Both the position numbers and the translations under genes were made by a program. Below are positions 5,627 to 32,676 of a DNA stretch of 39,308 nt, one piece after another; position 1 is the stretch's first letter; each line of letters starts with the position of its first letter. Origin of the DNA: a virus; IMG/VR virus record IMGVR_UViG_3300015263_000371. One strand, 5' to 3'. A model generated the notes under the pieces. That model was given only the letters and a program-made list of their open reading frames with translations. It was not told the DNA's origin and did not search any database.

Positions 5627-7050
5627 CTTTCCTGCCGTTCGGTGAATGGCGGCCCGATGTTGCGGATTACGAGGGCCAGCATTCGGACAATATCGACGGC
5701 GTGTTGCCCCAGGGTGACGGCTATGGTCCATTCCCAGGAGCTACAGGGTCTTGGGCGAATGTACTTGGCGCTTCCGTCAACGGTCTTTTCACGGCCATTA
5801 AAAATGACGGAACCATGTTGGTGTTTGTGGCAACAACTGCCAATAGACTTTATGTAAATACCGGAGTTTGGAACTGGACTGATGTTTCCAAGGGTGGTGT
5901 TGCTTATACTGCACCACCTACCGGGATGAATTGGCAGTTTGCCCAATTCAATAACTACGTTTTTGCCGTACAGCAAAATACCGCGCCACAGGTCTATGAT
6001 ATGACCTCCAGTAGCGCATTCGCTGATCTTGGTGGCTCACCACCCAGTGCCGGCTCTATTGCCATAGTCAACAGATTCGTTGTTCTTTCCAATGTTCTTT
6101 CGCCGAATGGCTACCGCATTCAATGGTCTGGATTGAACGCGACGACGACATGGACAAGCGGCGTAAGCCAATCTGATTATCAGGACATTGCGGACGGCGG
6201 CCTTGTGCGCGGCGTTGTCGGCGGTGAATACGGCACTATTCTACAAGATTATTCCATACGGAGGATGAATTTCGCACCCGGATCTCCGTATGTATTCAGC
6301 ATTGAAAGAATAGCGCAGAATGACGGCGTTCACCCGCTTGCGATGTATTCAGCAGTCCAGGCGGGTGACAGGATATTTTTCTATTCTCCGTCAGGTTTCA
6401 AAATGCTTTTACCCGGCGGCTACCCGATTGCAATAGGAAAAGAAAAGATAGACCGCACATTCTATGACGATTACGGCGGTTTCAGCTCCGTTGCTCAATC
6501 GGCTCTATTTATTGGTATCGCAGATACCCACAAGCCGAGAGTTTATTGGAGCTATCCTTCAAACAGCGCCACAACAGGTCAATTCGACAAAATATTGGTC
6601 TATGATTGGCAATTGGAAAGATGGTCTAGGGCTTCCGTAACCGGGGAATATCTTGGGCCCCTTGCTACATCAACCGGAAGCGGTAGCCAGGGCCAATTCG
6701 ATATTGGCATAGTAAATACATCGCACAGATTGCAGACCCTAACGGGAAGCAATTTAGCGGCCACTCTTGATACCGCACAGCATAGTGCCGGGGGTCGCCG
6801 GATTTTTGTCAGAGGATTCCGACCGATCACTGATGCGTCCAACGTCAAGGGTCAGGCTTCACAGCAAGAAACCGAATCGGACGTTGCTACTTATGGTCCA
6901 GGCACCGCTAAAACCGTGGGTGCCGATGGCATGATACCGATACGCTTTAGTACACGGTTCTCCAGGGCGCGTATAACAATACCGGCTGCGGCGAGCTGGA
7001 CTTATGCCTCCGGGGTGGAACCGGATATTGCGATTGAGGGCGAGAAGTAA
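5623..7050 (+). CDS. Hypothetical virion protein (475 aa), possible tail tube / nozzle protein
   Basis: Large beta-rich ORF translationally coupled (ATGA) to the adaptor-like gene. Function is inferred from position only. Confidence 0.45.
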   Translation: MTFLPFGEWRPDVADYEGQHSDNIDGVLPQGDGYGPFPGATGSWANVLGASVNGLFTAIKNDGTMLVFVATTANRLYVNTGVWNWTDVSKGGVAYTAPPTGMNWQFAQFNNYVFAVQQNTAPQVYDMTSSSAFADLGGSPPSAGSIAIVNRFVVLSNVLSPNGYRIQWSGLNATTTWTSGVSQSDYQDIADGGLVRGVVGGEYGTILQDYSIRRMNFAPGSPYVFSIERIAQNDGVHPLAMYSAVQAGDRIFFYSPSGFKMLLPGGYPIAIGKEKIDRTFYDDYGGFSSVAQSALFIGIADTHKPRVYWSYPSNSATTGQFDKILVYDWQLERWSRASVTGEYLGPLATSTGSGSQGQFDIGIVNTSHRLQTLTGSNLAATLDTAQHSAGGRRIFVRGFRPITDASNVKGQASQQETESDVATYGPGTAKTVGADGMIPIRFSTRFSRARITIPAAASWTYASGVEPDIAIEGEK

Positions 7051-8158: not shown

Positions 8159-8863
8159 ATGGGCGGCAAATCTTCATCCCAACAGCAGAGCCAAACGGTA
8201 AGCCAGCCCTGGGGACCGACTCAGCAGCCGCTTACTGATTTAGTTAACAATGTCGTAGCCAATAACGCGACGTTGCCGGATTATAGTCCGCAGACAGCGG
8301 GTTTGGCGAATAACCTGCTTTCCAATCAACCAAACTATAATCAGAATGCGCAGGATTATTACAACACCTATGCGCAGGGCTTGTCTCCATTCACGAATGC
8401 GAACTATCTCGACCCAATGAGCAATCCCTATCTCGGGACTGCCATGCAGACGCTAAATTCTGATATTACCAATCAGATTAACGATATGTTCGCCGCGAAC
8501 GGTCGGCAGGACTCGGGATTAAATCAACAGGCTCTAGCCCGTGGGTTGTCCCAGGGCGAAGCGCAATTGTTGATGAACCAATACAATACCAACGCCAATA
8601 ATTATCTCGGCGCGCAAAGTTCTCTGTACGGGGCGGGTAACGCCACTAATCAAGGCATTCTAGGAAATGCCCTAACGGGGCTTAATACAGCGAATAATAT
8701 CCCCGGAATGGTGAATAACACAGCGGCAACGGAACAATTGTTGTTGCCTATTGCCGGCCTTGGCGGTCAGACGAATAGCAGCGGTACAAGCACCACGACT
8801 CAGCCGCTATCTCAGACATGGGCGCAATGGATGAGTCCATTCAAGTTTAGCTGGGGCGCATAA
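8159..8863 (+). CDS. Gln/Asn-rich protein (234 aa), probable internal virion / ejection protein
   Basis: GGGAGA RBS. The N-terminus MGGKSSSQQQSQ parallels the preceding gene, and N/Q content is very high. Confidence 0.55.
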   Translation: MGGKSSSQQQSQTVSQPWGPTQQPLTDLVNNVVANNATLPDYSPQTAGLANNLLSNQPNYNQNAQDYYNTYAQGLSPFTNANYLDPMSNPYLGTAMQTLNSDITNQINDMFAANGRQDSGLNQQALARGLSQGEAQLLMNQYNTNANNYLGAQSSLYGAGNATNQGILGNALTGLNTANNIPGMVNNTAATEQLLLPIAGLGGQTNSSGTSTTTQPLSQTWAQWMSPFKFSWGA

Positions 8864-8865
8864 CT

Positions 8866-10233
8866 ATGGCTTCCCTTCTCGATTCATTTGCATTCAATCC
8901 GCAATCCTACACCAGCCTGCTAAGTATGCTGGGGCTTGGTGGCGACTCCGGTTTGCCTCCTAGTGCTGGACCGATGAATATCTCTCCACTCGGCCCCATT
9001 GGGCAAATGCAGGCGTTCCCCGGTCAGGCCGTAGCGCAGGCCGATAAATCGCTTGCGACCCAAGCGGGGCAGGCTCCCGCACAATTGCCACCGCAAGCGA
9101 AGCCGGCGCAATATCAGCCACAGAATGAGGGGCCACCGGAAGCCGGTATTCTTCCGGGCATCTTTGGACGGCTACAGGCAGGCGCAACAAACCTGACCAG
9201 CGGCGGCAACCCGATAGCCGGTATCATAAACGCGATTGGCGGTCTTGCCACGGGCCAGCGTACTGATCCTATCGGTATGCGAATGCAGATGATGAAGGCG
9301 ACCTATGACGCGCTTCTTCCCCAACTCGGTCCCAAGCTCGCTTATGCGGCGGCATTGAACCCGCAGGTGCTTGGGGAGTTGGCGAAGCCGCAAGCAATAG
9401 CTCCGGGTGGAGAATTGGTTTCCGCTCTAGGTGCCGGCCCAGGCGGCGCTCCGTCGTCGCCCGGAACACAATCGGGTGTTATAACGCAAAACACCAATGG
9501 CAAGATGGATGAGGGTACGCTTCGGCAACTTGCCGACCAATATATAGCCGGCGATCCATCCGTATTGCAAAATCTTGGCCGCACGGCAATCGGCGCGATG
9601 AACGTGGTTGAATTGCGCAAGATGATTGTCCGCAGAATGCAGGAAATGGGTATTAGCCCGAGACAGCAGGCCGTCAGGATGGCTGAATTTCAAGGTCTTA
9701 CGGCTTCTGAAAGGACTCTTGGAACTCGCCTTGCGAATGTTACCCAGGGCGTTGAGGAAATGGGGCCGTTGGTCGAGCAATTAAATCAAACCTATTCCAA
9801 AGTTCCGGGGATGACAAATATTGTTCCGTGGAACAAACTGATTCAAAAAGGCGCAACACAACTCGGCAATGCCGATATGGCGCGGGTGAAGGCAGCGGTT
9901 TTCTCGCTGGCGAATGCTTATGCCCGCATGATTAGCCCGACCGGCCAAATCCACCAAGAGAACATCAATCACGCCCTAGAAGTGTTGGGAGAGGGTTATA
10001 GCAAGGGGCAAATGTCGGCGGCTACACAGCAGCTTATGCAGGAAGCCAACGCGATCAAGACCGGCAACAGAAACGCGATGCAAACATTGCGGACAAATTA
10101 TATGTCTGCGGCTGGGAATCATCCAAATATTGATCCCCGTGCCATCAATGCACTTAAGTCCAATCCGGCTCTACGCGACCAATTCGATGCAAAATATGGG
10201 GCGGGCGCTTCTGCTAGTGTCCTGGGTCAGTAA
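8866..10233 (+). CDS. Probable internal virion / ejection protein (455 aa)
   Basis: Disordered P/Q/A/G-rich N-terminal half followed by a helical C-terminal half. Position is between the tail genes and the lysozyme-domain gene. Confidence 0.5.
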   Translation: MASLLDSFAFNPQSYTSLLSMLGLGGDSGLPPSAGPMNISPLGPIGQMQAFPGQAVAQADKSLATQAGQAPAQLPPQAKPAQYQPQNEGPPEAGILPGIFGRLQAGATNLTSGGNPIAGIINAIGGLATGQRTDPIGMRMQMMKATYDALLPQLGPKLAYAAALNPQVLGELAKPQAIAPGGELVSALGAGPGGAPSSPGTQSGVITQNTNGKMDEGTLRQLADQYIAGDPSVLQNLGRTAIGAMNVVELRKMIVRRMQEMGISPRQQAVRMAEFQGLTASERTLGTRLANVTQGVEEMGPLVEQLNQTYSKVPGMTNIVPWNKLIQKGATQLGNADMARVKAAVFSLANAYARMISPTGQIHQENINHALEVLGEGYSKGQMSAATQQLMQEANAIKTGNRNAMQTLRTNYMSAAGNHPNIDPRAINALKSNPALRDQFDAKYGAGASASVLGQ

Positions 10234-18153: not shown

Positions 18154-18167
18154 TTATACGCTAGTTG

Positions 18168-18196
18168 TTGACTTATATCGTTTTGCATGTTATGCG
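18168..18196 (+). promoter_or_regulatory. Candidate promoter for the serine recombinase (possibly a leaderless transcript)
   Basis: TTGACT (18168-18173), 17-nt spacer, TATGCG (18191-18196). ATG 18204 lies about 7 nt after the -10 and has no SD. Confidence 0.3.
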
Positions 18197-18203
18197 TCAA
18201 CCC

Positions 18204-18821
18204 ATGAAACCCGCCGAAACACCCAAAGGGGAGCTAATCGGCTATGCCCGCGTCTCGACAGAGGACCAAAGCCTCACGCTCCAAACTGACGCGCTCAGGA
18301 AAGCCGGCTGCTCGATCATCCGAGAGGAAAAAAAGAGCGGGGCAGCAAAGCACCGCCCAATGCTCGACCTCGCCATCAAGGATTTGCGTCCGGGTGATAC
18401 CTTGGTTGTGTGGCGGCTTGACAGGCTGGCTAGGTCAATGCGTGACCTCTACCTGCGACTCGATCAGATATTCGAGGCCGAGGCATCATTCAAAAGCCTA
18501 CAGGAAAACTTCGATTTTAATACCGCCATTGGCCGTCTATATCTAGCCATTGCCGGAGCCTTTGCGGAGTTTGAACGCCAACTTACCATTGAGCGCACTC
18601 GGGCAGGCATGGCGGCGTTAAAGGCTAGGGGGGAGCAGGTGGGCCGGGAACGCAAGATAACGGAAAAGGTTAAGGATCAGATCAGGGCGCTGGTTATGAA
18701 GGGCTGGACGGTCAAGGCAATTGCCAAGAAATACGGGGTTCACCCGCAAACGATCTATTCTAACTTCAAGGGCGGCAAGCGCGGCATCTTGATCGCTGCC
18801 CACAAACGCAAGAAGCCATAG
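18204..18821 (+). CDS. Small serine recombinase, resolvase/invertase family (205 aa; alternative start 18192)
   Basis: Contains GYARVSTEDQSLTLQTDAL (catalytic Ser), LVVWRLDRLARS, and a C-terminal HTH (GWTVKAIAKKYGVHPQTIYSNF). Confidence 0.85.
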   Translation: MKPAETPKGELIGYARVSTEDQSLTLQTDALRKAGCSIIREEKKSGAAKHRPMLDLAIKDLRPGDTLVVWRLDRLARSMRDLYLRLDQIFEAEASFKSLQENFDFNTAIGRLYLAIAGAFAEFERQLTIERTRAGMAALKARGEQVGRERKITEKVKDQIRALVMKGWTVKAIAKKYGVHPQTIYSNFKGGKRGILIAAHKRKKP

Positions 18822-19240: not shown

Positions 19241-20269
19241 TTAGAGGTCCGCGACCCCGCCCTGGTAATCCGGGTGATGGTGCCCATAGGTTTGCTCTAA
19301 CGTCTTGACAGTCATTCCAAGATGCCCCGCCACGTCCCAGACCGGGGCGCCCTTCTGCATCAGCCACGTTGCCCTAGTGTGGCGTAGCGTGTGCGGCGTC
19401 ACCCCTTTTAACCCGGCGGACTTACAAATCCGATCCCAGCTCCTATGCGGTTGTTTAATGGATTGGCCGTTGTAATGACAAACCGTGGCACAGGAACCGC
19501 CGTCAAGCCGTTCCCAGCGCCGTAGGTGCGCTAGAATGCGCCTTCCTAGCCTCACGGGTGGGGCGCGCTTATTCAGCGCACCAGCGGCCATTTGTGGCCT
19601 TCTGTGCAAAATGGCCCGTTTGAGGTCTATTTGGTCCCATTTCAGCGCCAGAATCACGCCCTTTCGGGAACCCGTGTAGAGGCAAAGCAGGATCATTCTG
19701 GCCAAATACGGGGTTTTTCTGGCCACTTTCAGGAGTCGGGCGGCTTCCGACCGGGTAAGCCAGCGGGTTCTGGGGAGTGGGTTCGCCGGTATCGTGACCC
19801 GTGGGACCATCTCCAGCGGGCCGTGTTCCTTGTGCCAGTGATTGATTGCGGCCTGGAGAATCTTGAGGTCAACCAGCGCCCCGCCCTGTTGCCTTGGCTC
19901 CGCATACGCGCGGCAGTTCGCGCTGGTCACGTCCATTACCCTTTTGTCGCCCCACCACTTATTCAGATTCGAGACGTTATATCTCAGGTTGCGAGCCGTG
20001 CGGCGCTGCGGAACTACCTCTTTGAGATACGCTAGAAGAATCTCCGCTATTGACGGACAGGATGATTGTCGCGGGCGGTAGTTCGCCGCGATGTAGTCTC
20101 CCAGGAGTTTTTGCGCAGCATCGAGGTCAGAGCTGCCTGTGCGGACGAAACGCGCTCCGTCGCGGATGACGTAGCTATTGCGCCGTCGGTCATACCACAG
20201 GCGCGCTCCCTTGCTCTGGCGCGGCAATTTTCGATCCAATCCCGAATATCTGCCCGCGTTGTATGCCAC
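19241..20269 (-). CDS. int: Tyrosine integrase (342 aa, GTG start)
   Basis: Contains LYTGSRKGVILALKW (Arg box), HTLRHTRATWL, and LGMTVKTLEQTYGHH (catalytic Tyr). Confidence 0.9.
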   Translation of the reverse strand: MAYNAGRYSGLDRKLPRQSKGARLWYDRRRNSYVIRDGARFVRTGSSDLDAAQKLLGDYIAANYRPRQSSCPSIAEILLAYLKEVVPQRRTARNLRYNVSNLNKWWGDKRVMDVTSANCRAYAEPRQQGGALVDLKILQAAINHWHKEHGPLEMVPRVTIPANPLPRTRWLTRSEAARLLKVARKTPYLARMILLCLYTGSRKGVILALKWDQIDLKRAILHRRPQMAAGALNKRAPPVRLGRRILAHLRRWERLDGGSCATVCHYNGQSIKQPHRSWDRICKSAGLKGVTPHTLRHTRATWLMQKGAPVWDVAGHLGMTVKTLEQTYGHHHPDYQGGVADL

Positions 20270-24962: not shown

Positions 24963-25015
24963 ATTGTGCGCCCATGCGGACATTTTTGGGCCTCTGAAAG
25001 CAAGGGAGTTTGCGT

Positions 25016-25576
25016 ATGCTCGAAGCCATAGAACACGCTAGCCCGACGCAAATACAGTTAAACCAAGCCCACAAGGAGCGGCGCGCGAGAATTGCCGCTA
25101 GCGCTGTTCCAGACACGGCAATGCCGCGCGAGGCGGTCACCCCCTATCTGTACCAGCGCGAAACTCCGATGGCCGACGACATTCTGCAAGTGGTCTTGCG
25201 GTTTTACGGAATGCGAAAGGTTGATTTGATTTCGGACCGGAGAGCAAAACGCTACACGGTTCCGCGGCAGGCGGCCATGTACCTATTCCGCGAGCTGACG
25301 ACTCTCAGTTTCACCCAAATGGGGGCGATTCTGGGAAAGCGCGACCATACCACCGTCATGCACGGGGTTACGAAAGTAACAAACCAAATCGCCCAGGGCC
25401 ACAAGATCAAATCAGACATTGATTTTATGCGGTCAATGATTGCCGATCGGGTTGCCGCCAGAAACGCGATTTCCCCCAATCCGGAGAACGAAGAAGCAGA
25501 CGAACGCGCGGGCCGGATCGCCCGCGAAATCGCCCGCCTTATCACCGAATGGAAGCAATTGCAGGCGGCTAAATGA
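25016..25576 (+). CDS. DnaA domain-IV-like HTH protein (186 aa), first gene of the early-right operon
   Basis: GGGAG RBS. The segment RRAKRYTVPRQAAMYLFRELTTLSFTQMGAILGKRDHTTVMHGVTKV matches the DnaA C-terminal DNA-binding domain signature. Confidence 0.75.
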   Translation: MLEAIEHASPTQIQLNQAHKERRARIAASAVPDTAMPREAVTPYLYQRETPMADDILQVVLRFYGMRKVDLISDRRAKRYTVPRQAAMYLFRELTTLSFTQMGAILGKRDHTTVMHGVTKVTNQIAQGHKIKSDIDFMRSMIADRVAARNAISPNPENEEADERAGRIAREIARLITEWKQLQAAK

Positions 25577-25920
25577 TTAAGTTGAAACTGAGTTACCCCC
25601 CGACAGCTAACCATATTTGGAAATCCGGCGGCGGTCGCGTTTATCGCTCTGCGCGATATGTCTCTTGGCAGAAAACGGCGATGGCCGAAGCGATCGCGCA
25701 AAAGCCGAAGCCGGTGGCTGGCGCTTACCACCTAAACATCACGGCATACAGACCGGACAAGCGGAAAAGGGACGTGGACAACCTAATCAAGGTTGTCTCC
25801 GACTTTGCGCAACGGGCGGGATTAGTCGAAGGCGACCATTTGGCGCAAAGCGTTTCGGCGCGCTGGGCGGAATCCGAGGGCGACGGGATCGAATTGGAAA
25901 TCAAGGGAGCGGACGCATGA
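25573..25920 (+). CDS. rusA: RusA-family Holliday junction resolvase (115 aa)
   Basis: Contains PPTANHIW ... RSARYVSWQ ... KRDVDNLIKVVSDF ... GLVEGDH, with ATGA coupling on both sides. Confidence 0.7.
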   Translation: MIKLKLSYPPTANHIWKSGGGRVYRSARYVSWQKTAMAEAIAQKPKPVAGAYHLNITAYRPDKRKRDVDNLIKVVSDFAQRAGLVEGDHLAQSVSARWAESEGDGIELEIKGADA

Positions 25921-26714
25921 ACCGCATTTGGATGCCCCTCTATATTGGGGATTTCCTTGCCGACACGATGGAACTCGGAGCAACCGAACGCGGGATATAC
26001 ATTAGTCTAATAATGCATGCTTGGCAGCATGACGGACTGATCCCCCTAGACGACAAAAAACTAGCCAGAATATCGGGTTGCGATAGTCGGCTGTGGCACC
26101 AGTACAAGGAAACGGTGTTGCAATTCTTTGACGTCGTAAACGACGTTTCGGCGCAACACTCAAGAGTCGTTTCGGAGCTGCACCGTTGTTCCGAAATCTC
26201 CAATAAACGCAAGGCGGCAGCCCTGCAAAAGCACAGCAAAAGCTCTGCAAAAATCGTGCATTTGGATACACAATCACAATCACAATCACAATCACAATTA
26301 TATAAGAAAGAAAGAAAGGAAGAACCGCCCTTGCGGGCGGGTAAGCATTTGATCCCCGCCGATTGGCGTCCCTCGGAAGTCCACTTCGACTTAGCGACAA
26401 GGTTGGGGCTTTCGATGAAGGAGGTGGAGGAAGCAGCGGGGGAAATGCGGGATTGGTCGCTTGGGAACGGGGAGCGGCGTTCGGATTGGGACAGAGTTTT
26501 TAGCAACTGGCTTCGCCGCAACTCTAGGAGAAAACGCAATGGATTTGGAGGACCGAGAACACTTCAAGACGATAGCAAATCAGTTAGTCGCGCCGCCGAT
26601 CGCCTCGCGGAACGGGCCGAACGGGGCGAGCAAATCTGGGGGCCTAGACCAAGCCTCTTGCCTGCGGCTGGCGCGGACATTGTTCAGCTGCTACCGAAGG
26701 GACGAAGCACATGA
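25917..26714 (+). CDS. DUF1376 (YdaU-like) replication-module protein (265 aa)
   Basis: ATG 25917 forms an ATGA overlap with the rusA stop. The N-terminus MNRIWMPLYIGDFLADTMELGATERGIYISLIMHAWQHDGLIPLDDKKLARI is the DUF1376 signature. Confidence 0.75.
   Translation: MNRIWMPLYIGDFLADTMELGATERGIYISLIMHAWQHDGLIPLDDKKLARISGCDSRLWHQYKETVLQFFDVVNDVSAQHSRVVSELHRCSEISNKRKAAALQKHSKSSAKIVHLDTQSQSQSQSQLYKKERKEEPPLRAGKHLIPADWRPSEVHFDLATRLGLSMKEVEEAAGEMRDWSLGNGERRSDWDRVFSNWLRRNSRRKRNGFGGPRTLQDDSKSVSRAADRLAERAERGEQIWGPRPSLLPAAGADIVQLLPKGRST
26269..26298. repeat. (CACAAT)x5 tandem repeat inside the DUF1376 gene, followed by TATATAAGAAAGAAAGAAAGGAAGAA
   Basis: Read directly. It encodes the SQSQSQSQ linker. 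Confidence 0.9.
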
Positions 26715-28022: not shown

Positions 28023-28226
28023 ATGGCAAAACTTAGCACAAAGCGGCGCAATTCTTTGCCTAAAGTTGATTTCGGTTTACCGGGGCGTCGGGCTTATCCC
28101 ATGCCGGATCAGTCCCACGCGCGCAACGCCAAGGCGAGGGCTGCGCAGCAATTTAAAAAAGGTAATCTGACTAAATCACAATTCGGCCATATCAATCGGA
28201 TGGCCGACGAAGTTTTGAAGGGCTAA
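28023..28226 (+). CDS. Conserved small phage protein (67 aa)
   Basis: The motif LPKVDFGLPGRRAYPMPDQSHARNAKARAAQ is a recurrent small phage protein motif (from memory). Confidence 0.55.
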   Translation: MAKLSTKRRNSLPKVDFGLPGRRAYPMPDQSHARNAKARAAQQFKKGNLTKSQFGHINRMADEVLKG

Positions 28227-28227
28227 T

Positions 28228-28407
28228 ATGACAAAGGCAAGGAAAGACGACGGCAGGGGGTGGAAACGTGGTGCCGGCCCTTATTCGCGCAGTTATCCTA
28301 AAATGGATGACTATCACGAGTTGCGCGCTAAAGAGCGCGATGTATCGGGCGTCGTGGATGAAAACGCCAATCGCAACGAGGGGCGCGCCAGCGGCGTTAA
28401 GGCTTAG
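28228..28407 (+). CDS. Questionable small ORF (59 aa)
   Basis: Hand translation gives MTKARKDDGRGWKRG... The ORF is tightly abutted upstream, and its stop overlaps the convergent HTH gene stop. Confidence 0.3.
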   Translation: MTKARKDDGRGWKRGAGPYSRSYPKMDDYHELRAKERDVSGVVDENANRNEGRASGVKA

Positions 28408-28595
28408 GATTCAATTTTAATATCCGGGTCTTTCAAAAGCAATTTTATCAAACGGATAACCGGGCCGGGGATTTCCCGGTCGCCGGCTTCCCGGCGTCTA
28501 ACGGTTCGACCGCTACCGACGCCCAAGAGCTTAGCTAATCCACTAGCGGATAAGCCCAGCTCTCGGCGCGCGGTTTTCAATTCTTGCGGGGTCAT
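28404..28595 (-). CDS. Small XRE-type HTH protein (63 aa): Aca-like or antitoxin-like
   Basis: ATG 28595 forms an ATGA overlap with the upstream stop. Sequence: MTPQELKTARRELGLSASGLAKLLGVGSGRTVRRREAGDREIPGPVIRLIKLL. Confidence 0.65.
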   Translation of the reverse strand: MTPQELKTARRELGLSASGLAKLLGVGSGRTVRRREAGDREIPGPVIRLIKLLLKDPDIKIES

Positions 28596-28813
28596 GAAAG
28601 GCACTCGATTCTGTCTTTTATCTGTCGCGCATCTTCTAGGCATTGAATACCGTTGCAAATAACGACATCAATAACCCCGATTTCTCCGGCCCTCCTATAG
28701 ATCGAATAGGGCCAACCGCTTTCATCTCGTAAATGTTCGCCGTTCTCTCCTTCGGAGCCGATATAGAATCCGGGTTCAAATCGCGGTGTATCATCCCAAC
28801 GCAATAGTGACAT
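28592..28813 (-). CDS. Small acidic protein of unknown function (73 aa), upstream partner of the HTH gene
   Basis: Strong AGGAGG RBS. About 14 Asp/Glu against 8 Lys/Arg. No motif was recognised. Confidence 0.55.
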   Translation of the reverse strand: MSLLRWDDTPRFEPGFYIGSEGENGEHLRDESGWPYSIYRRAGEIGVIDVVICNGIQCLEDARQIKDRIECLS

Positions 28814-29037
28814 TTTTGCCTCCTATTCCATAAACATTTCGATTAGATCGAGGGGTTGATTTACTTATAGACTGCGATCAGGTGAGGGATACATTCGCGG
28901 ATCATTTTGGTTCTCCCTTGATAGGTGGGCAGGATTGCCCCGGCTAGCCAATTTCAACATTACAGAATGCGCGATATTATTGCGAAGATTGAGTACGAAA
29001 CAAGAACACGATCAAAAAGTTAAACGGTAAAATACAA

Positions 29038-29301
29038 ATGGGCAGGCCAAAAGGATCACAGAACAAAGATAAGCCGTTTAGAGAAGCATTGCGTATGGAA
29101 ATCGCTGCGCTTGCGGACGTTGACCAGCGCGGATTGCGCAAGATTGCACGCGAACTGATTCTCAAGGCCGAATCTGGCGACGTGATCGCGACGCGTGAAA
29201 TTGCCGACCGCCTTGATGGCAAAGTTCCGCAAGCCATTGGAGCCGATGACGAATCCGGCCCGGTCAAGCTGGAAATTGCTTGGGCGAATGTGGGGGGCTG
29301 A
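29038..29301 (+). CDS. terS: Probable small terminase subunit (87 aa)
   Basis: The N-terminus MGRPKGSQNKDKPF is typical of small phage terminase/DNA-binding proteins (from memory). It lies upstream of TerL, and no SD was seen. Confidence 0.45.
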   Translation: MGRPKGSQNKDKPFREALRMEIAALADVDQRGLRKIARELILKAESGDVIATREIADRLDGKVPQAIGADDESGPVKLEIAWANVGG

Positions 29302-29614: not shown

Positions 29615-29932
29615 ATGATAAAGCGCATAGCATTGCTTTCCGCGCTATTACTGGCCGGCTGCCAAACGACGCAAACGCCGCCGCCCGAGTATGTCCACCC
29701 GTACAGGGGCGAGCTGCACATTCATTACGCGGCGGACCTCCACGCCGAATGCCTGGCGTTCAACAATCCTGATAAGATATTCGGTTGCGCTTTCGTGTGG
29801 TCCAAGTCCTGCGACGTTTACATCCTCAGCACTGAGCCCCCGGATAGCCAAGCGCAGATCAAGGAACACGAGTTAGCGCATTGCAACGGCTGGCCGGCGG
29901 AACATAACCCGAGTGCGCCTTGGCCGTTATGA
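29615..29932 (+). CDS. Lipoprotein with HExxH motif (105 aa)
   Basis: Signal peptide plus lipobox MIKRIALLSALLLAGC, and the motif KEHELAHCNGW. ATGA overlap with the terL start. Confidence 0.65.
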   Translation: MIKRIALLSALLLAGCQTTQTPPPEYVHPYRGELHIHYAADLHAECLAFNNPDKIFGCAFVWSKSCDVYILSTEPPDSQAQIKEHELAHCNGWPAEHNPSAPWPL

Positions 29933-31209
29933 CCGATGTGCACCGCATTGTCATTCCGTACACACCGCGAAAGCAGTTTATACAGTTTCACAACCGGATC
30001 GAGCGATTCGCCTGTATCGTCGCGCATAGGCGGGCCGGCAAGACGGTTGCTTGTGTGCACGAGCTACAAAAGGAAGCCCTGACAAATCCACGTCCCAATC
30101 CGAGAGTGGCTTACATTGCGCCCTTACTTAAACAGGCCAAGGCGGTTGCTTTTGACTATCTGCGGGAAGCTATGTCTCCGTTTCGGCAGTTGGGCGCTAC
30201 GGTTAATGAATCCGAACTCCGGGTTGATTATCCTCACGGCGGAAGGGTCCGACTGTATGGGGGTGATAATCCCGATGCGCTCCGAGGTATCGGACTTGAT
30301 CTCGCCGTTATTGATGAACCAGCAGACACCGACCCACGACTATGGGCCGAAATCATCCGCCCTGCACTAGCGGACCGTAAGGGCCGCGCGGTATTCATTG
30401 GCACCCCAAAGGGCCATAACTCGTTTTATGATGTATGGCGGAGATCCCAAAAGGAGGGCGAATGGTTCTCTTTGATGCTCAAGGCATCCGAGACGAATCT
30501 TATCGAGCCGGAGGAACTCGCGCAGGCCCGCGCCGAAATGTCGGAGGACCAGTACGCGCAGGAATTCGAGTGTTCCTTTGATGCGGCGGTTATCGGTTCT
30601 TATTACGGAAAGTTAATTTCGGAAGCGGAAGCGGACAAGCGCATTTGCGGTGTTCCGCATGATCCTAGCGCCCAGGTCTGGACGAGCTGGGATTTAGGTA
30701 TTCGCGATGCTACGGCTATTTGGTTCGCTCAGGTGGTTGGCAAGGAAATCCACCTCATTGATTACTACGAGGCGTCGGGCGTTGCGCTTGAGCATTACGT
30801 TAGGGCGATACAGGACAGGCGTTACAATTACGCCGGCCATATCGTCCCGCATGACGCGCAAGCCAAGGAATTGGGGACCGGAAAGTCCCGATTGGAAGTA
30901 CTGGACAGTCTTGGACTGAGGAATGTCACGGTAGCCCCCATGCACCGTGTAGAGGATGGCATCAACGCTGCTCGGGTAATGATTCCCCGGTGCTGGTTTG
31001 ACAAGAAAAAGACCGAAAGGGCCATAGAGGCTATGAAGCTCTACAGGTCCGATTACGACGAGCGGCAGAAGATATTGAAGCCGACCCCGGTGCATGACTG
31101 GACTAGCCATTGTGCTGACAGTTTCCGTTACTTGGCTATGACACTCGATAACGTCCGGCAGTCCAACTTTCATAAAAAGATCGTTTATCCTAAGTTTGGT
31201 GTCGCATGA
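29929..31209 (+). CDS. terL: Terminase large subunit (426 aa)
   Basis: ATG 29929 forms an ATGA overlap with the upstream gene. Walker A is AHRRAGKT and Walker B-like is LDLAVIDEPAD. It has a C-terminal nuclease-size domain and is followed by the portal region. Confidence 0.85.
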   Translation: MTDVHRIVIPYTPRKQFIQFHNRIERFACIVAHRRAGKTVACVHELQKEALTNPRPNPRVAYIAPLLKQAKAVAFDYLREAMSPFRQLGATVNESELRVDYPHGGRVRLYGGDNPDALRGIGLDLAVIDEPADTDPRLWAEIIRPALADRKGRAVFIGTPKGHNSFYDVWRRSQKEGEWFSLMLKASETNLIEPEELAQARAEMSEDQYAQEFECSFDAAVIGSYYGKLISEAEADKRICGVPHDPSAQVWTSWDLGIRDATAIWFAQVVGKEIHLIDYYEASGVALEHYVRAIQDRRYNYAGHIVPHDAQAKELGTGKSRLEVLDSLGLRNVTVAPMHRVEDGINAARVMIPRCWFDKKKTERAIEAMKLYRSDYDERQKILKPTPVHDWTSHCADSFRYLAMTLDNVRQSNFHKKIVYPKFGVA

Positions 31210-31379: not shown

Positions 31380-31450
31380 TGGGCGTTCTTTTCGTGATTT
31401 TCGTCATTGTCATCGTTTTTGGTTTCATTGAAGTATTCAGGCCGAAATGA
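31379..31450 (+). CDS. Possible 23-aa hydrophobic peptide
   Basis: TAATG overlap upstream and ATGA overlap downstream. Translation: MGVLFVIFVIVIVFGFIEVFRPK. Confidence 0.25.
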   Translation: MGVLFVIFVIVIVFGFIEVFRPK

Positions 31451-32676
31451 CCTCATTATGGGATTTGCTATCGGCTCCGGGGGCCAATTACGGCACCTTG
31501 TCGCCACAAGAATTACCAGCGAATCCGCCCACGATACTCGACAGCATTATTGCTGGATTGGGTAAGACTGCGGCTAATGCCGCGATGGCTCCTGGCAACG
31601 CCTATAAGTATGGCGGCACGGTTGATGAGATGATTAAGCCTGCGGCTGACCTAGCGATGATGACGACGCTAGGGGCCGGGGCCATGCCAGCGGAAGCGGA
31701 CGCTCTTAGAATGGGGATCAGGGCCTACCACGGCAGTCCCTACGATTTTAATAAGTTTGATTTGAGCAAGATCGGCATGGGCGAGGGCGCCCAGGCTTAC
31801 GGGCATGGACTGTATTTTGCCGAGAATCCAGCGGTTGCGGAACAATATAAAAGGGCCTTGACCGGATTAAACCCAAACTCGCTAGGAAGCGGTAAGGCGC
31901 AATTCGGGGTTAATGGCGTACCAATGCCGTCCGGTATTTCTGGTCATGCGGCTCTGGATACCGGGCAGCAAATGGATTTGCTTCTGTCAACAATGAAGCA
32001 CAATCCAGATAGCACGATGATACCGTTTCTTCGGCAGCAAATCGAAAACAGGATTGCAAACCATTATTCGATGACAAGCGGAGGCTCCGCTGGCGAGGAT
32101 ATGCGGGCGATGGCCGATTATTACAACAAACACGTTAAGAACGCCACGCCGGAACAAGTTTCGAGCATAGCTCCGGGCCGCATGTACGAAGTCAACATAA
32201 ACGCCGAACCGCAACAGTTCTTGGATTGGGAGAAGCCTATTGGTGAGCAGCCGCAAGCCGTAAAAGATATAGCGCAACAAATTGGTTTACCCGCCGAATA
32301 CAGTTTTCCGAAACTCAGTAATAGAATTGGGGAACCGCCATTACCGGCCACAAAAGAAAATTATGGGAGTGATTTTTATAGGCGCCTGGGAGCCAAAATA
32401 ATTGCCGATAAAACCCGGACACCAGAAATAGCGAACCCGGTTTCCGTTGGCGACATTATCGACCCATTCGCGTCTAAGGCTCTTTCCGACGCCGGCATCC
32501 CCGGCATTAAATACCTAGACCAAGGTTCGCGCGGTTCCGCTACTGGAACTAGAAACTACGTCGTTTTCAATCCCGATATTATAGACATTATCCGAAAATA
32601 CGGACTTGCTGGATTATTCCCAGCAGCCGGCGCACTAGCGCCGCCGCGTCAACAAGCTCCAATTCTTTCGCAGTAG
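31447..32676 (+). CDS. Conserved phage protein (409 aa) with H-Y-E ADP-ribosyltransferase-like motifs
   Basis: Contains IRAYHGSPYDFNKFDLSKIG.GEGAQAYGHGLYFAENPAVAEQY, then PGRMYEVNI, and a C-terminal IKYLDQGSR...NYVVFNPDII. It sits between TerL and the portal gene. Confidence 0.65.
   Translation: MTSLWDLLSAPGANYGTLSPQELPANPPTILDSIIAGLGKTAANAAMAPGNAYKYGGTVDEMIKPAADLAMMTTLGAGAMPAEADALRMGIRAYHGSPYDFNKFDLSKIGMGEGAQAYGHGLYFAENPAVAEQYKRALTGLNPNSLGSGKAQFGVNGVPMPSGISGHAALDTGQQMDLLLSTMKHNPDSTMIPFLRQQIENRIANHYSMTSGGSAGEDMRAMADYYNKHVKNATPEQVSSIAPGRMYEVNINAEPQQFLDWEKPIGEQPQAVKDIAQQIGLPAEYSFPKLSNRIGEPPLPATKENYGSDFYRRLGAKIIADKTRTPEIANPVSVGDIIDPFASKALSDAGIPGIKYLDQGSRGSATGTRNYVVFNPDIIDIIRKYGLAGLFPAAGALAPPRQQAPILSQ

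Follow-up and report, generated by a model that had tools for sequence, protein, structure and literature searches.

A candidate Aca-like accessory cassette of two small genes in a temperate phage and the helix-turn-helix family to which its regulator belongs

The reverse-strand gene pair

The sequence analyzed here, called the window throughout, is the whole 39,308-nucleotide (nt) DNA of IMG/VR virus record IMGVR_UViG_3300015263_000371, and our subject is a cassette of two small genes on its reverse strand. These are an open reading frame (ORF) encoding a 73-amino-acid acidic protein, designated ORF-A, and a gene for a 63-amino-acid XRE-type helix-turn-helix (HTH) protein (Table 1). An earlier note, made by a model from the letters alone, had described the pair as a possible anti-CRISPR (acr) and anti-CRISPR-associated (aca) operon, and its account of the genes was borne out. 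ORF-A contains 14 acidic (D+E) against 8 basic (K+R) residues, with an isoelectric point of 4.55, and is preceded by the strong AGGAGG ribosome-binding site that the note had pointed out. Its TGA stop codon (28594-28592) overlaps the ATG of the HTH gene (28595-28593) on the minus strand, an arrangement that suggests translational coupling, and the second protein does match XRE models. Both flanks lie on the plus strand, with replication genes on one side and terminase genes on the other, so that the cassette runs antiparallel to each. Judging from conservation, both ORFs are real genes rather than chance ORFs, because ORF-A has 13 homologs with 20 invariant residues and the HTH protein has many homologs.

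The 13 homologs of ORF-A are 52 to 78% identical to it, and the window protein keeps all 20 of the invariant residues. Conserved motifs of the family are GSEGENGEH, GWPYSIYR, and D-V-[IL]-C-[HN]-G-I-Q, and a profile search found about 54 cluster representatives among 1.84 billion at an E value of <=1e-3. No match to ORF-A was obtained in Pfam, NCBIfam, PHROGs, or PADLOC, and its profile matched nothing among the PDB sequences at an E value of <=10. The AlphaFold2 model (mean predicted local distance difference test score [pLDDT] of 89.1) has three strands and a C-terminal helix. Foldseek comparison of this model with the PDB gave a best E value of 2.1 with template modeling (TM) scores of <0.36, and comparison with BFVD a best E value of 0.05, with none at <=0.001 in either database. 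As modeled, ORF-A is a confident fold prediction without a solved or viral relative, in agreement with the earlier description of its fold. Two other readings of ORF-A were tried and dropped, that of a split MqsA because the protein lacks CxxC pairs and that of a split HicB-like antitoxin because no family or fold match was found.

ORF-A homologs travel in varied company. At eight loci that carry one, the next gene differs each time or is absent (DUF6525, a 72-amino-acid non-HTH protein, a 182-amino-acid protein, and a convergent gene were found), and one homolog is a lone gene between neighbors of opposite orientation. Homologs also occur in long early operons amid recombination genes (RecT, NinB, and DUF968), without any HTH gene. 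None of the eight loci has an HTH-family gene beside the homolog, nor does any of 14 further metagenomic loci (22 other loci in total), and these 14 have none of the cis elements of the cassette described below. The DNA similarity of the window to two of the ORF-A loci (L004 and L002) extends from start codon to stop codon and covers the coding region only; ORF-A therefore appears to move as a single gene, and this comparison marks it as an independently mobile single-gene module. Several relatives have additional domains. P0024 has a C-terminal DUF2958 domain (E value of 4.7e-39), for which nothing functional was found in the literature, and P0029 and P0049 have Cys-rich or zinc-knuckle-like C-terminal tails. 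P0026 carries an N-terminal domain with the motif HDFCDAN, and the same domain is found as an upstream gene product at two loci of the HTH family, L010 (E value of 8e-8) and L036 (E value of 2e-3). This fusion ties ORF-A to the same gene pool as the genes that accompany the HTH family.

The HTH protein matched the C-terminal part of the Pfam family MqsA_antitoxin (PF15731; E value of 1.5e-5, profile positions 71 to 126 of 131), with a score of 25.5 that falls below the cutoff of 30, and it also matched HTH_31 and HTH_3. A similar match was found to TIGR03830 (E value of 1.6e-7, profile positions 65 to 122 of 127), again with a score (31.2) below the cutoff (61.8). The N-terminal CxxC...CxxC zinc-binding domain of MqsA is absent from the window protein. 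Compared as a single sequence with the PDB, the protein was closest to Aca10 (7XI5) and Aca3 (9VT3), at an E value of 0.004 each, followed by HigA2 at 0.1. The profile of 30 family members gave E values of 5.7e-9 for Aca3, 7.7e-9 for HigA2, 8.5e-8 for Aca10, and 1.4e-5 for Aca2. These relationships recall those reported among the Aca proteins themselves, as Aca3 resembles MqsA and Aca6, Aca9, and Aca10 resemble HigA2 (PMC9410906). The HTH-domain matches cover residues 1 to 60 of 63, and no toxin-binding region was found beside the DNA-binding domain. An AlphaFold2 model built from a two-sequence alignment was too poor for use (pLDDT of 53).

One position of the protein departs from the family. 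Residue 35 is Arg where more than 90% of the members have Trp, and Aca3, Aca10, and HigA2 likewise have Trp at the matching position. The codon found here, CGG, is a single transition away from TGG. The protein is otherwise well conserved and was found with identical sequence on three contigs, so that Arg35 is not a read error. At the other end of the gene, the last small ORF of the plus-strand flank (59 amino acids, 28228-28407) converges on the HTH gene and the 3' ends of the two share 4 nt; no terminator-like hairpin was found between these transcription units.

Cargo exchange and conserved cis elements in the HTH family

A scan of IMG/VR found 43 viral loci encoding relatives of the HTH protein (37 to 67% identity), and a scan of the genome collection found two loci only, Roseomonas nepalensis among them; a Bradyrhizobium phage also carries a member. 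The HTH gene is the last gene of short operons, in which it follows from zero (L016) to four (L010) other genes, here called cargo. The empty cassette, L016, consists of promoter, leader, and HTH gene. Cargo and HTH genes overlap by 4, 8, or 11 nt at 21 of the 43 listed loci. The 29 proteins encoded directly upstream of the HTH gene, 16 of which are acidic, form 26 clusters. When 20 cargo proteins were compared with Pfam, no credible match was obtained, the two that scored at all being below threshold and without a significant stretch. Three cargo proteins fall in PHROGs of unknown function, and four that were compared with the PDB gave nothing significant.

Turnover of the cargo behind a conserved regulator can be followed among related low-GC phages (L025 to L031), whose near-identical 61-amino-acid HTH proteins accompany three different cargo sets (of 60/61, 106, and 120 to 122 amino acids), clear evidence, by sequence comparison, that cargo was exchanged recently. 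An arrangement in which the terminase genes diverge from cargo and HTH genes is found in the window, in L020 (large terminase 52% identical), and in L025 to L031 (42 to 48%), in each case with different cargo, and this synteny places the window in the HTH cassette family.

The family has a characteristic promoter, TTGACA followed by two bases and the palindrome TAGGGCC-N3-GGCCCTA (canonical form ATAGGGCCAATGGCCCTAT), the 3' end of which runs into a TATnTT -10 box. The palindrome thus fills the 17-nt spacer of a TTGACA-N17-TATnTT promoter located ahead of the first cargo gene. With two mismatches or fewer, TTGACA-nn-TAGGGCCAATGGCCCTA-TAT has 16 matches in the 1 kb ahead of HTH genes (43.9 kb searched) and 6 in the other 199 kb, most of these 6 heading longer operons. 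The full block, in which this promoter is followed after about 14 nt by AGGGCAATGGTGCCCGCC, a ribosome-binding site, and an ATG, was found at more than 18 viral loci (L010 to L053, for example, L011:2723-2769 and L016:2933-2980). Variants of the operator track subgroups of the HTH protein, being GTTAGGCAGT-N6-ACTGCCTAAC in L025 to L029 and a GGACA/TGTCC version in L024. No paper on the palindrome sequence was found in a literature search.

The second element, GGGCA-N4-TGCCC, lies in the leader, 12 to 18 nt past the palindrome. It was found at 22 loci including the window, with 17 distinct sequences and ten different loops, and is the most widespread cis element of the family, commoner than either type of palindrome. 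Its stems show G.U-compatible variants and one compensatory GC-to-CG change, and the distance from the element to the first start codon is 15 to 22 nt at nearly every one of the 22 loci. A different hairpin occupies the leader position in L012, L045, and L055. Rfam gave nothing relevant for the window cassette or for L011, and it contains no family for the leader.

Some members extend this picture. A plasmid-like contig (L006, with ParA, resolvase, and HicAB genes) has two cassettes, at 5802-6222 and 8699-9225, whose HTH proteins are paralogs and whose operators differ at an inner base (TAGGGCC-AAT-GGCCCTA versus TAGGGCA-TTA-TGCCCTA), which suggests two orthogonal regulator/operator pairs. The isolated and sequenced Bradyrhizobium phage ppBeUSDA76-2 (L055; OP596614.1, 1330-1890) has the same layout, with the palindrome TAGGGCC-ACT-TGCCCTA, the leader hairpin GCTCCGT-caaca-ACGGAGC, and a 95-codon ORF (1400-1687), unannotated in the record, that overlaps the HTH gene by ATGA. 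Annotated neighbors on a Bradyrhizobium plasmid were also considered, and they proved uninformative, the HTH protein there being longer and different. In Roseomonas nepalensis (L053; NZ_RCZP01000043.1, 1631-2459), a second copy of promoter, operator, and leader about 0.9 kb upstream of the cassette drives the gene for a 253-amino-acid and extremely acidic protein, built from three repeats that are each about 84 residues long, which looks like a neighboring operon co-regulated by the same HTH protein.

The window keeps part of this regulatory arrangement. Its leader element is placed as at the 21 other loci and is likely to be a 5' untranslated region (UTR) hairpin or a second operator. A mini-ORF begins where other loci start their first cargo gene, and it is probably the stub of a replaced cargo gene, or else a leader peptide. 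From its alignment with 15 canonical regulatory regions, we infer that a weak promoter probably takes the place of the TTGACA-N17-TATnTT sequence of the family. The imperfect palindrome over the -35 area is a possible alternative operator. The earlier note had proposed 28814-28900 as the place to look for an inverted-repeat operator; nothing but a 5-3-5 palindrome no better than chance occurs in that interval, and it was rejected as an operator for being too short and off the conserved position, and the conserved elements are found further upstream, at 28924-28990. The search for intergenic repeats returned chance-level repeats only.

Table 1. Features of the cassette, its regulatory region, and its flanks in the window
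Feature	Position	Strand	Basis or remark
ORF-A, 73-amino-acid acidic cargo protein of an uncharacterized family	28592..28813	-	ORF listing; ATG start
HTH gene, 63 amino acids, XRE-type, Aca3/Aca10/HigA2-like family; putative cassette autoregulator	28404..28595	-	Family and PDB matches
ATGA stop/start overlap of ORF-A and HTH gene	28592..28595	-	Sequence
Shine-Dalgarno AGGAGG of ORF-A, 5 nt ahead of ATG	28819..28824	-	Sequence
Arg35 of HTH protein, codon CGG	28491..28493	-	Alignment of 30 family members; Trp in >90% (RTVRRWEAG)
Leader element GGGGCAATCCTGCCCACC, stem GGGCA/TGCCC, 4-nt loop	28924..28941	-	One copy in the 39 kb of the window, against a chance expectation of 0.09
14-codon mini-ORF MIRECIPHLIAVYK	28861..28905	-	ATG 21 nt past leader element
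Putative weak promoter region, TTCGCA-N18-TAATGT or extended -10 TGtTGAAAT	28951..28986	-	Alignment with 15 canonical regulatory regions
Imperfect 15-bp palindrome CGCAATAATATCGCG, 6/7 arm positions, over -35 area	28970..28984	.	Sole palindrome with >=6 matching arm positions in 28790-29045
5-3-5 palindrome TCGATctaATCGA, probably chance	28839..28851	.	Read from sequence; below threshold of both repeat searches
DnaA_C-domain gene	25010-25576	+	Upstream flank
DUF1376 primosomal-like gene	25617-26714	+	Upstream flank
Small ORFs, last one ending at 28407		+	Upstream flank
DUF5681 small-terminase-like gene	29038-29301	+	Downstream flank
Large terminase	29920-31209	+	Downstream flank

Elsewhere in the window, a tyrosine integrase gene (19241-20269, minus strand) indicates that the phage is temperate, and a serine resolvase/invertase gene (18165-18821, plus strand; Resolvase, E value of 1e-39) lies within about 2 kb of it. 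The gene at 31447-32676 (plus strand, 409 amino acids), after the large terminase, has a match to ART-PolyVal below threshold (E value of 8.4e-6, 27 bits against a cutoff of 31.2). ART-PolyVal is an ADP-ribosyltransferase domain of polyvalent proteins. No close relative of the window was found among GenBank phages, the sole DNA match being 63 nt in the terminase.

Interpretation of the cassette

We consider the pair to be, more likely than not, one instance of a widespread, modular, Aca-like, and self-limiting accessory cassette of alphaproteobacterial-type phages and plasmids. Comparison across the family shows a common order of promoter, short leader hairpin, one to four exchangeable small cargo genes, and the conserved HTH gene last. 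By analogy with Aca regulators, the promoter would fire upon entry or induction and give a burst of cargo protein and HTH protein, after which an HTH dimer would bind the palindrome inside the promoter and shut the operon down; it might also bind the similar element in the leader, as DNA or as RNA. In the window, ORF-A would have been placed behind the 14-codon stub of the original first gene, with a ribosome site of its own, and its product would most likely be a small protein-binding inhibitor of host defense or of another host factor. That it acts against defense specifically is a tentative proposal made by analogy, which we hold to be possible and a little on the doubtful side. A bolder version, in which the HTH proteins are a new Aca-type family with its own operator and a leader perhaps bound as RNA, and in which ORF-A and more than 25 cargo families are new defense inhibitors, seems rather doubtful.

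Several observations weigh against the Aca-like cassette. The palindrome TAGGGCC-N3-GGCCCTA is missing near the window cassette even when three mismatches are allowed, and a scan of 28100-29300 found no consensus promoter (nor a terminator). Arg35 may impair the HTH protein, which makes autoregulation in this phage uncertain. The HTH profile fits the antitoxin HigA2 as well as it fits Aca3, and the sequence alone cannot tell an Aca protein from an antitoxin. None of the cargo proteins, ORF-A included, matched a known Acr or anti-defense protein in Pfam, PHROGs, or the PDB, as far as these were run. At L041 (1503-3333), two tandem palindromes are followed by a tyrosine-integrase-like ORF (483 amino acids as listed) that overlaps a gene for a 114-amino-acid HTH family member, so that cargo other than small, inhibitor-like proteins also occurs with this regulator family. 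Finally, none of the 44 other HTH loci contains an ORF-A homolog. The earlier note had looked to homologs of the pair in other mobile elements; each gene separately has many, but the combination of ORF-A and HTH gene was seen nowhere else.

Part of this evidence could also be read as decay, the operator having been lost and the regulator crippled by the change from Trp35 to Arg, with no regulated functional unit left. The stub at the conserved first-gene start would fit such a remnant, as would the missing palindrome and consensus promoter. Neither ORF is disrupted, however, and the ribosome site is strong; the leader element is likewise intact, ORF-A keeps 20 of 20 family-invariant residues, and the HTH protein is well conserved apart from Arg35 and recurs on three contigs, so we judge a dead remnant improbable. 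The window copy looks partly rewired or decayed, to go by its intact leader hairpin, its missing promoter palindrome, and its Arg35 for Trp. Because the palindrome is absent, a 14-codon ORF occupies the conserved start, and residue 35 is Arg, the window regulator may act via the leader element only, may have altered specificity, or may be impaired.

The main alternative in the earlier note was a type II toxin-antitoxin module of the higBA order, with the toxin gene first; in this reading, also conceivable in the mqsRA order, ORF-A would be the toxin and the HTH protein its neutralizing and autoregulating antitoxin. The reading is disfavored. Such a module would be consistent with the order of the genes, their overlap at ATGA, and the likeness of the HTH protein to HigA2 and MqsA, and antitoxins of the HigA2 and GraA types likewise autorepress at promoter operators (PMC9410906). 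ORF-A homologs, however, have no HTH-family partner at 8 plus 14 other loci, in one case standing alone between oppositely oriented neighbors, and ORF-A is acidic, without a RelE-, ParE-, or MqsR-like match by sequence or fold. The 63-amino-acid HTH protein has no extra toxin-binding domain, and the family includes both an empty cassette (L016) and operons of up to four cargo genes (L010). The 22 occurrences without an antitoxin, together with the lack of a toxin-like fold, make this explanation implausible, and we rate it the least probable of all.

A weightier competitor would make the HTH protein an ordinary phage regulator, for example, of the divergent terminase/late operon or of itself, and ORF-A an early or moron gene that has nothing to do with it and might then serve host takeover, superinfection exclusion, or something else rather than anti-defense. 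Small-terminase-like genes do diverge from the cassette in the window and in L020, L023, L033, and L038, and about 20 nt separate the L020 palindrome from the start of the divergent gene. The occurrence of ORF-A homologs in early operons with RecT, NinB, and DUF968, away from any HTH gene, the integrase cargo of L041, and the want of a cargo protein with an identified anti-defense function point the same way. On the other hand, the spacing of palindrome and leader is fixed with respect to the start codon of the first cargo gene and not to the divergent gene, the same cassette is found away from terminase genes on the plasmid-like L006 and in the bacterial genome L053, and turnover of cargo behind a conserved regulator is the pattern of Aca loci (PMC13551039, PMC9410906). 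We consider an ordinary regulator unlikely on balance.

For the window alone, the Aca-like reading would bring a modest gain, a single candidate gene plus its regulator, under regulation that may be altered. If that reading is true, the combination of the HTH gene, the palindrome TAGGGCC-N3-GGCCCTA, and the leader GGGCA-N4-TGCCC would offer a handle with which to search for anti-defense genes in Bradyrhizobium, Roseomonas, and their relatives, a host group that goes unmentioned in two surveys of Aca proteins (PMC9410906, PMC13551039). The HTH loci already yield about 26 unrelated small proteins without assigned function, with ORF-A among the cargo. The pairing of a promoter palindrome with a similar leader hairpin is under study for Aca1 and Aca2, and the family would supply a further case of it. 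The wider family of regulator, operator, leader hairpin, and about 26 cargo families appears to be undescribed in the searchable literature and is the more interesting by-product of this analysis.

Comparison with known systems

The layout of the window resembles that of acr-aca loci in that a mobile element carries a short operon, made up of small genes, that closes with a small HTH gene, and in that a leader motif is followed by a start codon at the conserved position, 21 nt on. The family adds the conserved regulator with varying upstream genes and the inverted-repeat operator in the core promoter, the latter not found in the window at three mismatches or fewer. No validated anti-CRISPR protein or homolog of one was identified upstream when ORF-A was searched in Pfam, NCBIfam, PHROGs, PADLOC, and the PDB by sequence and by fold. 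Strict acr-aca membership is not established, since no validated Acr is linked to the HTH family and the window has no promoter operator. The acr-aca-like layout proposed in the earlier note is sustained in part, by the homology to Aca3 and Aca10, the conserved regulator, promoter, and leader of the family, and its hypervariable cargo, and falls short in the missing Acr match, the equal closeness of HigA2, and the missing palindrome of the window.

Among the solved relatives, HigA2 of Vibrio cholerae (5JAA, 5J9I) matches the family profile over the full HTH domain including the C-terminal helix, and its partner gene also comes first in the operon. The window protein differs from these antitoxins in having neither the N-terminal toxin-binding segment of HigA2 nor the zinc domain of MqsA, and its upstream gene does not encode a RelE-type toxin and is found elsewhere without the partner. 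The best match to the profile, Aca3 of Neisseria meningitidis (9VT3), aligns by its residues 12 to 47 with the HTH core in its entirety, the ...VRRWEA motif included. Aca3 represses its own acr promoter and has MqsA as its closest solved relative (PMC9410906), and the window protein is likewise MqsA-like. Aca3 differs in that only these N-terminal 36 residues align, in its host group, and in the type II-C Acrs associated with it, which are unrelated.

Aca2, a regulator that binds both DNA and RNA, offers the same layout of promoter inverted repeat, 5'-UTR hairpin, and start codon at a conserved distance (PMC13551039). Within the HTH family, leader and promoter palindrome are alike in sequence (AGGGCAATGGTGCCC and AGGGCCAATGGCCCT), as would be expected if one protein recognized both; binding of RNA by the family would be a conjecture from Aca2. 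Aca2 itself is a distant relative and differs in combining a DUF1870 HTH with a dimerization domain.

A close parallel is Aca10 of the acrIC7-acrIC6-aca10 operon of Pseudomonas citronellolis (7XI5; PMC9410881), a 65-amino-acid XRE-type HTH protein whose gene, like that of the window protein, closes a short operon made up of small genes. The two are about 38% identical over 47 residues, well below the 50 to 100% used for Aca10 homologs (PMC9410906). Aca10 binds a 19- to 21-bp palindrome inside its promoter, ATACGCTCA-T-TGAGCGTAT, and its operator ATACGCTCATTGAGCGTAT and the family operator ATAGGGCC-AAT-GGCCCTAT share the 19-bp length and the ATA/TAT ends (PMC9410881). The inner operator sequence differs, the window lacks the palindrome, and its cargo is not a validated Acr. 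The aca10 operon, like the HTH family, has a predicted 5'-UTR RNA motif just past the transcription start (PMC13551039). According to a 2026 report, a DNA motif overlaps the promoter of the aca1, aca2, aca10, and aca12 operons, transcription starts 10 to 15 nt downstream, the 5' UTR opens with an RNA motif, and the position of the start codon is conserved (PMC13551039). By sequence comparison, the layout of the HTH family matches this published one, and the cassette would work like an acr-aca operon, with a regulator that is significantly but distantly homologous to Aca3 and Aca10.

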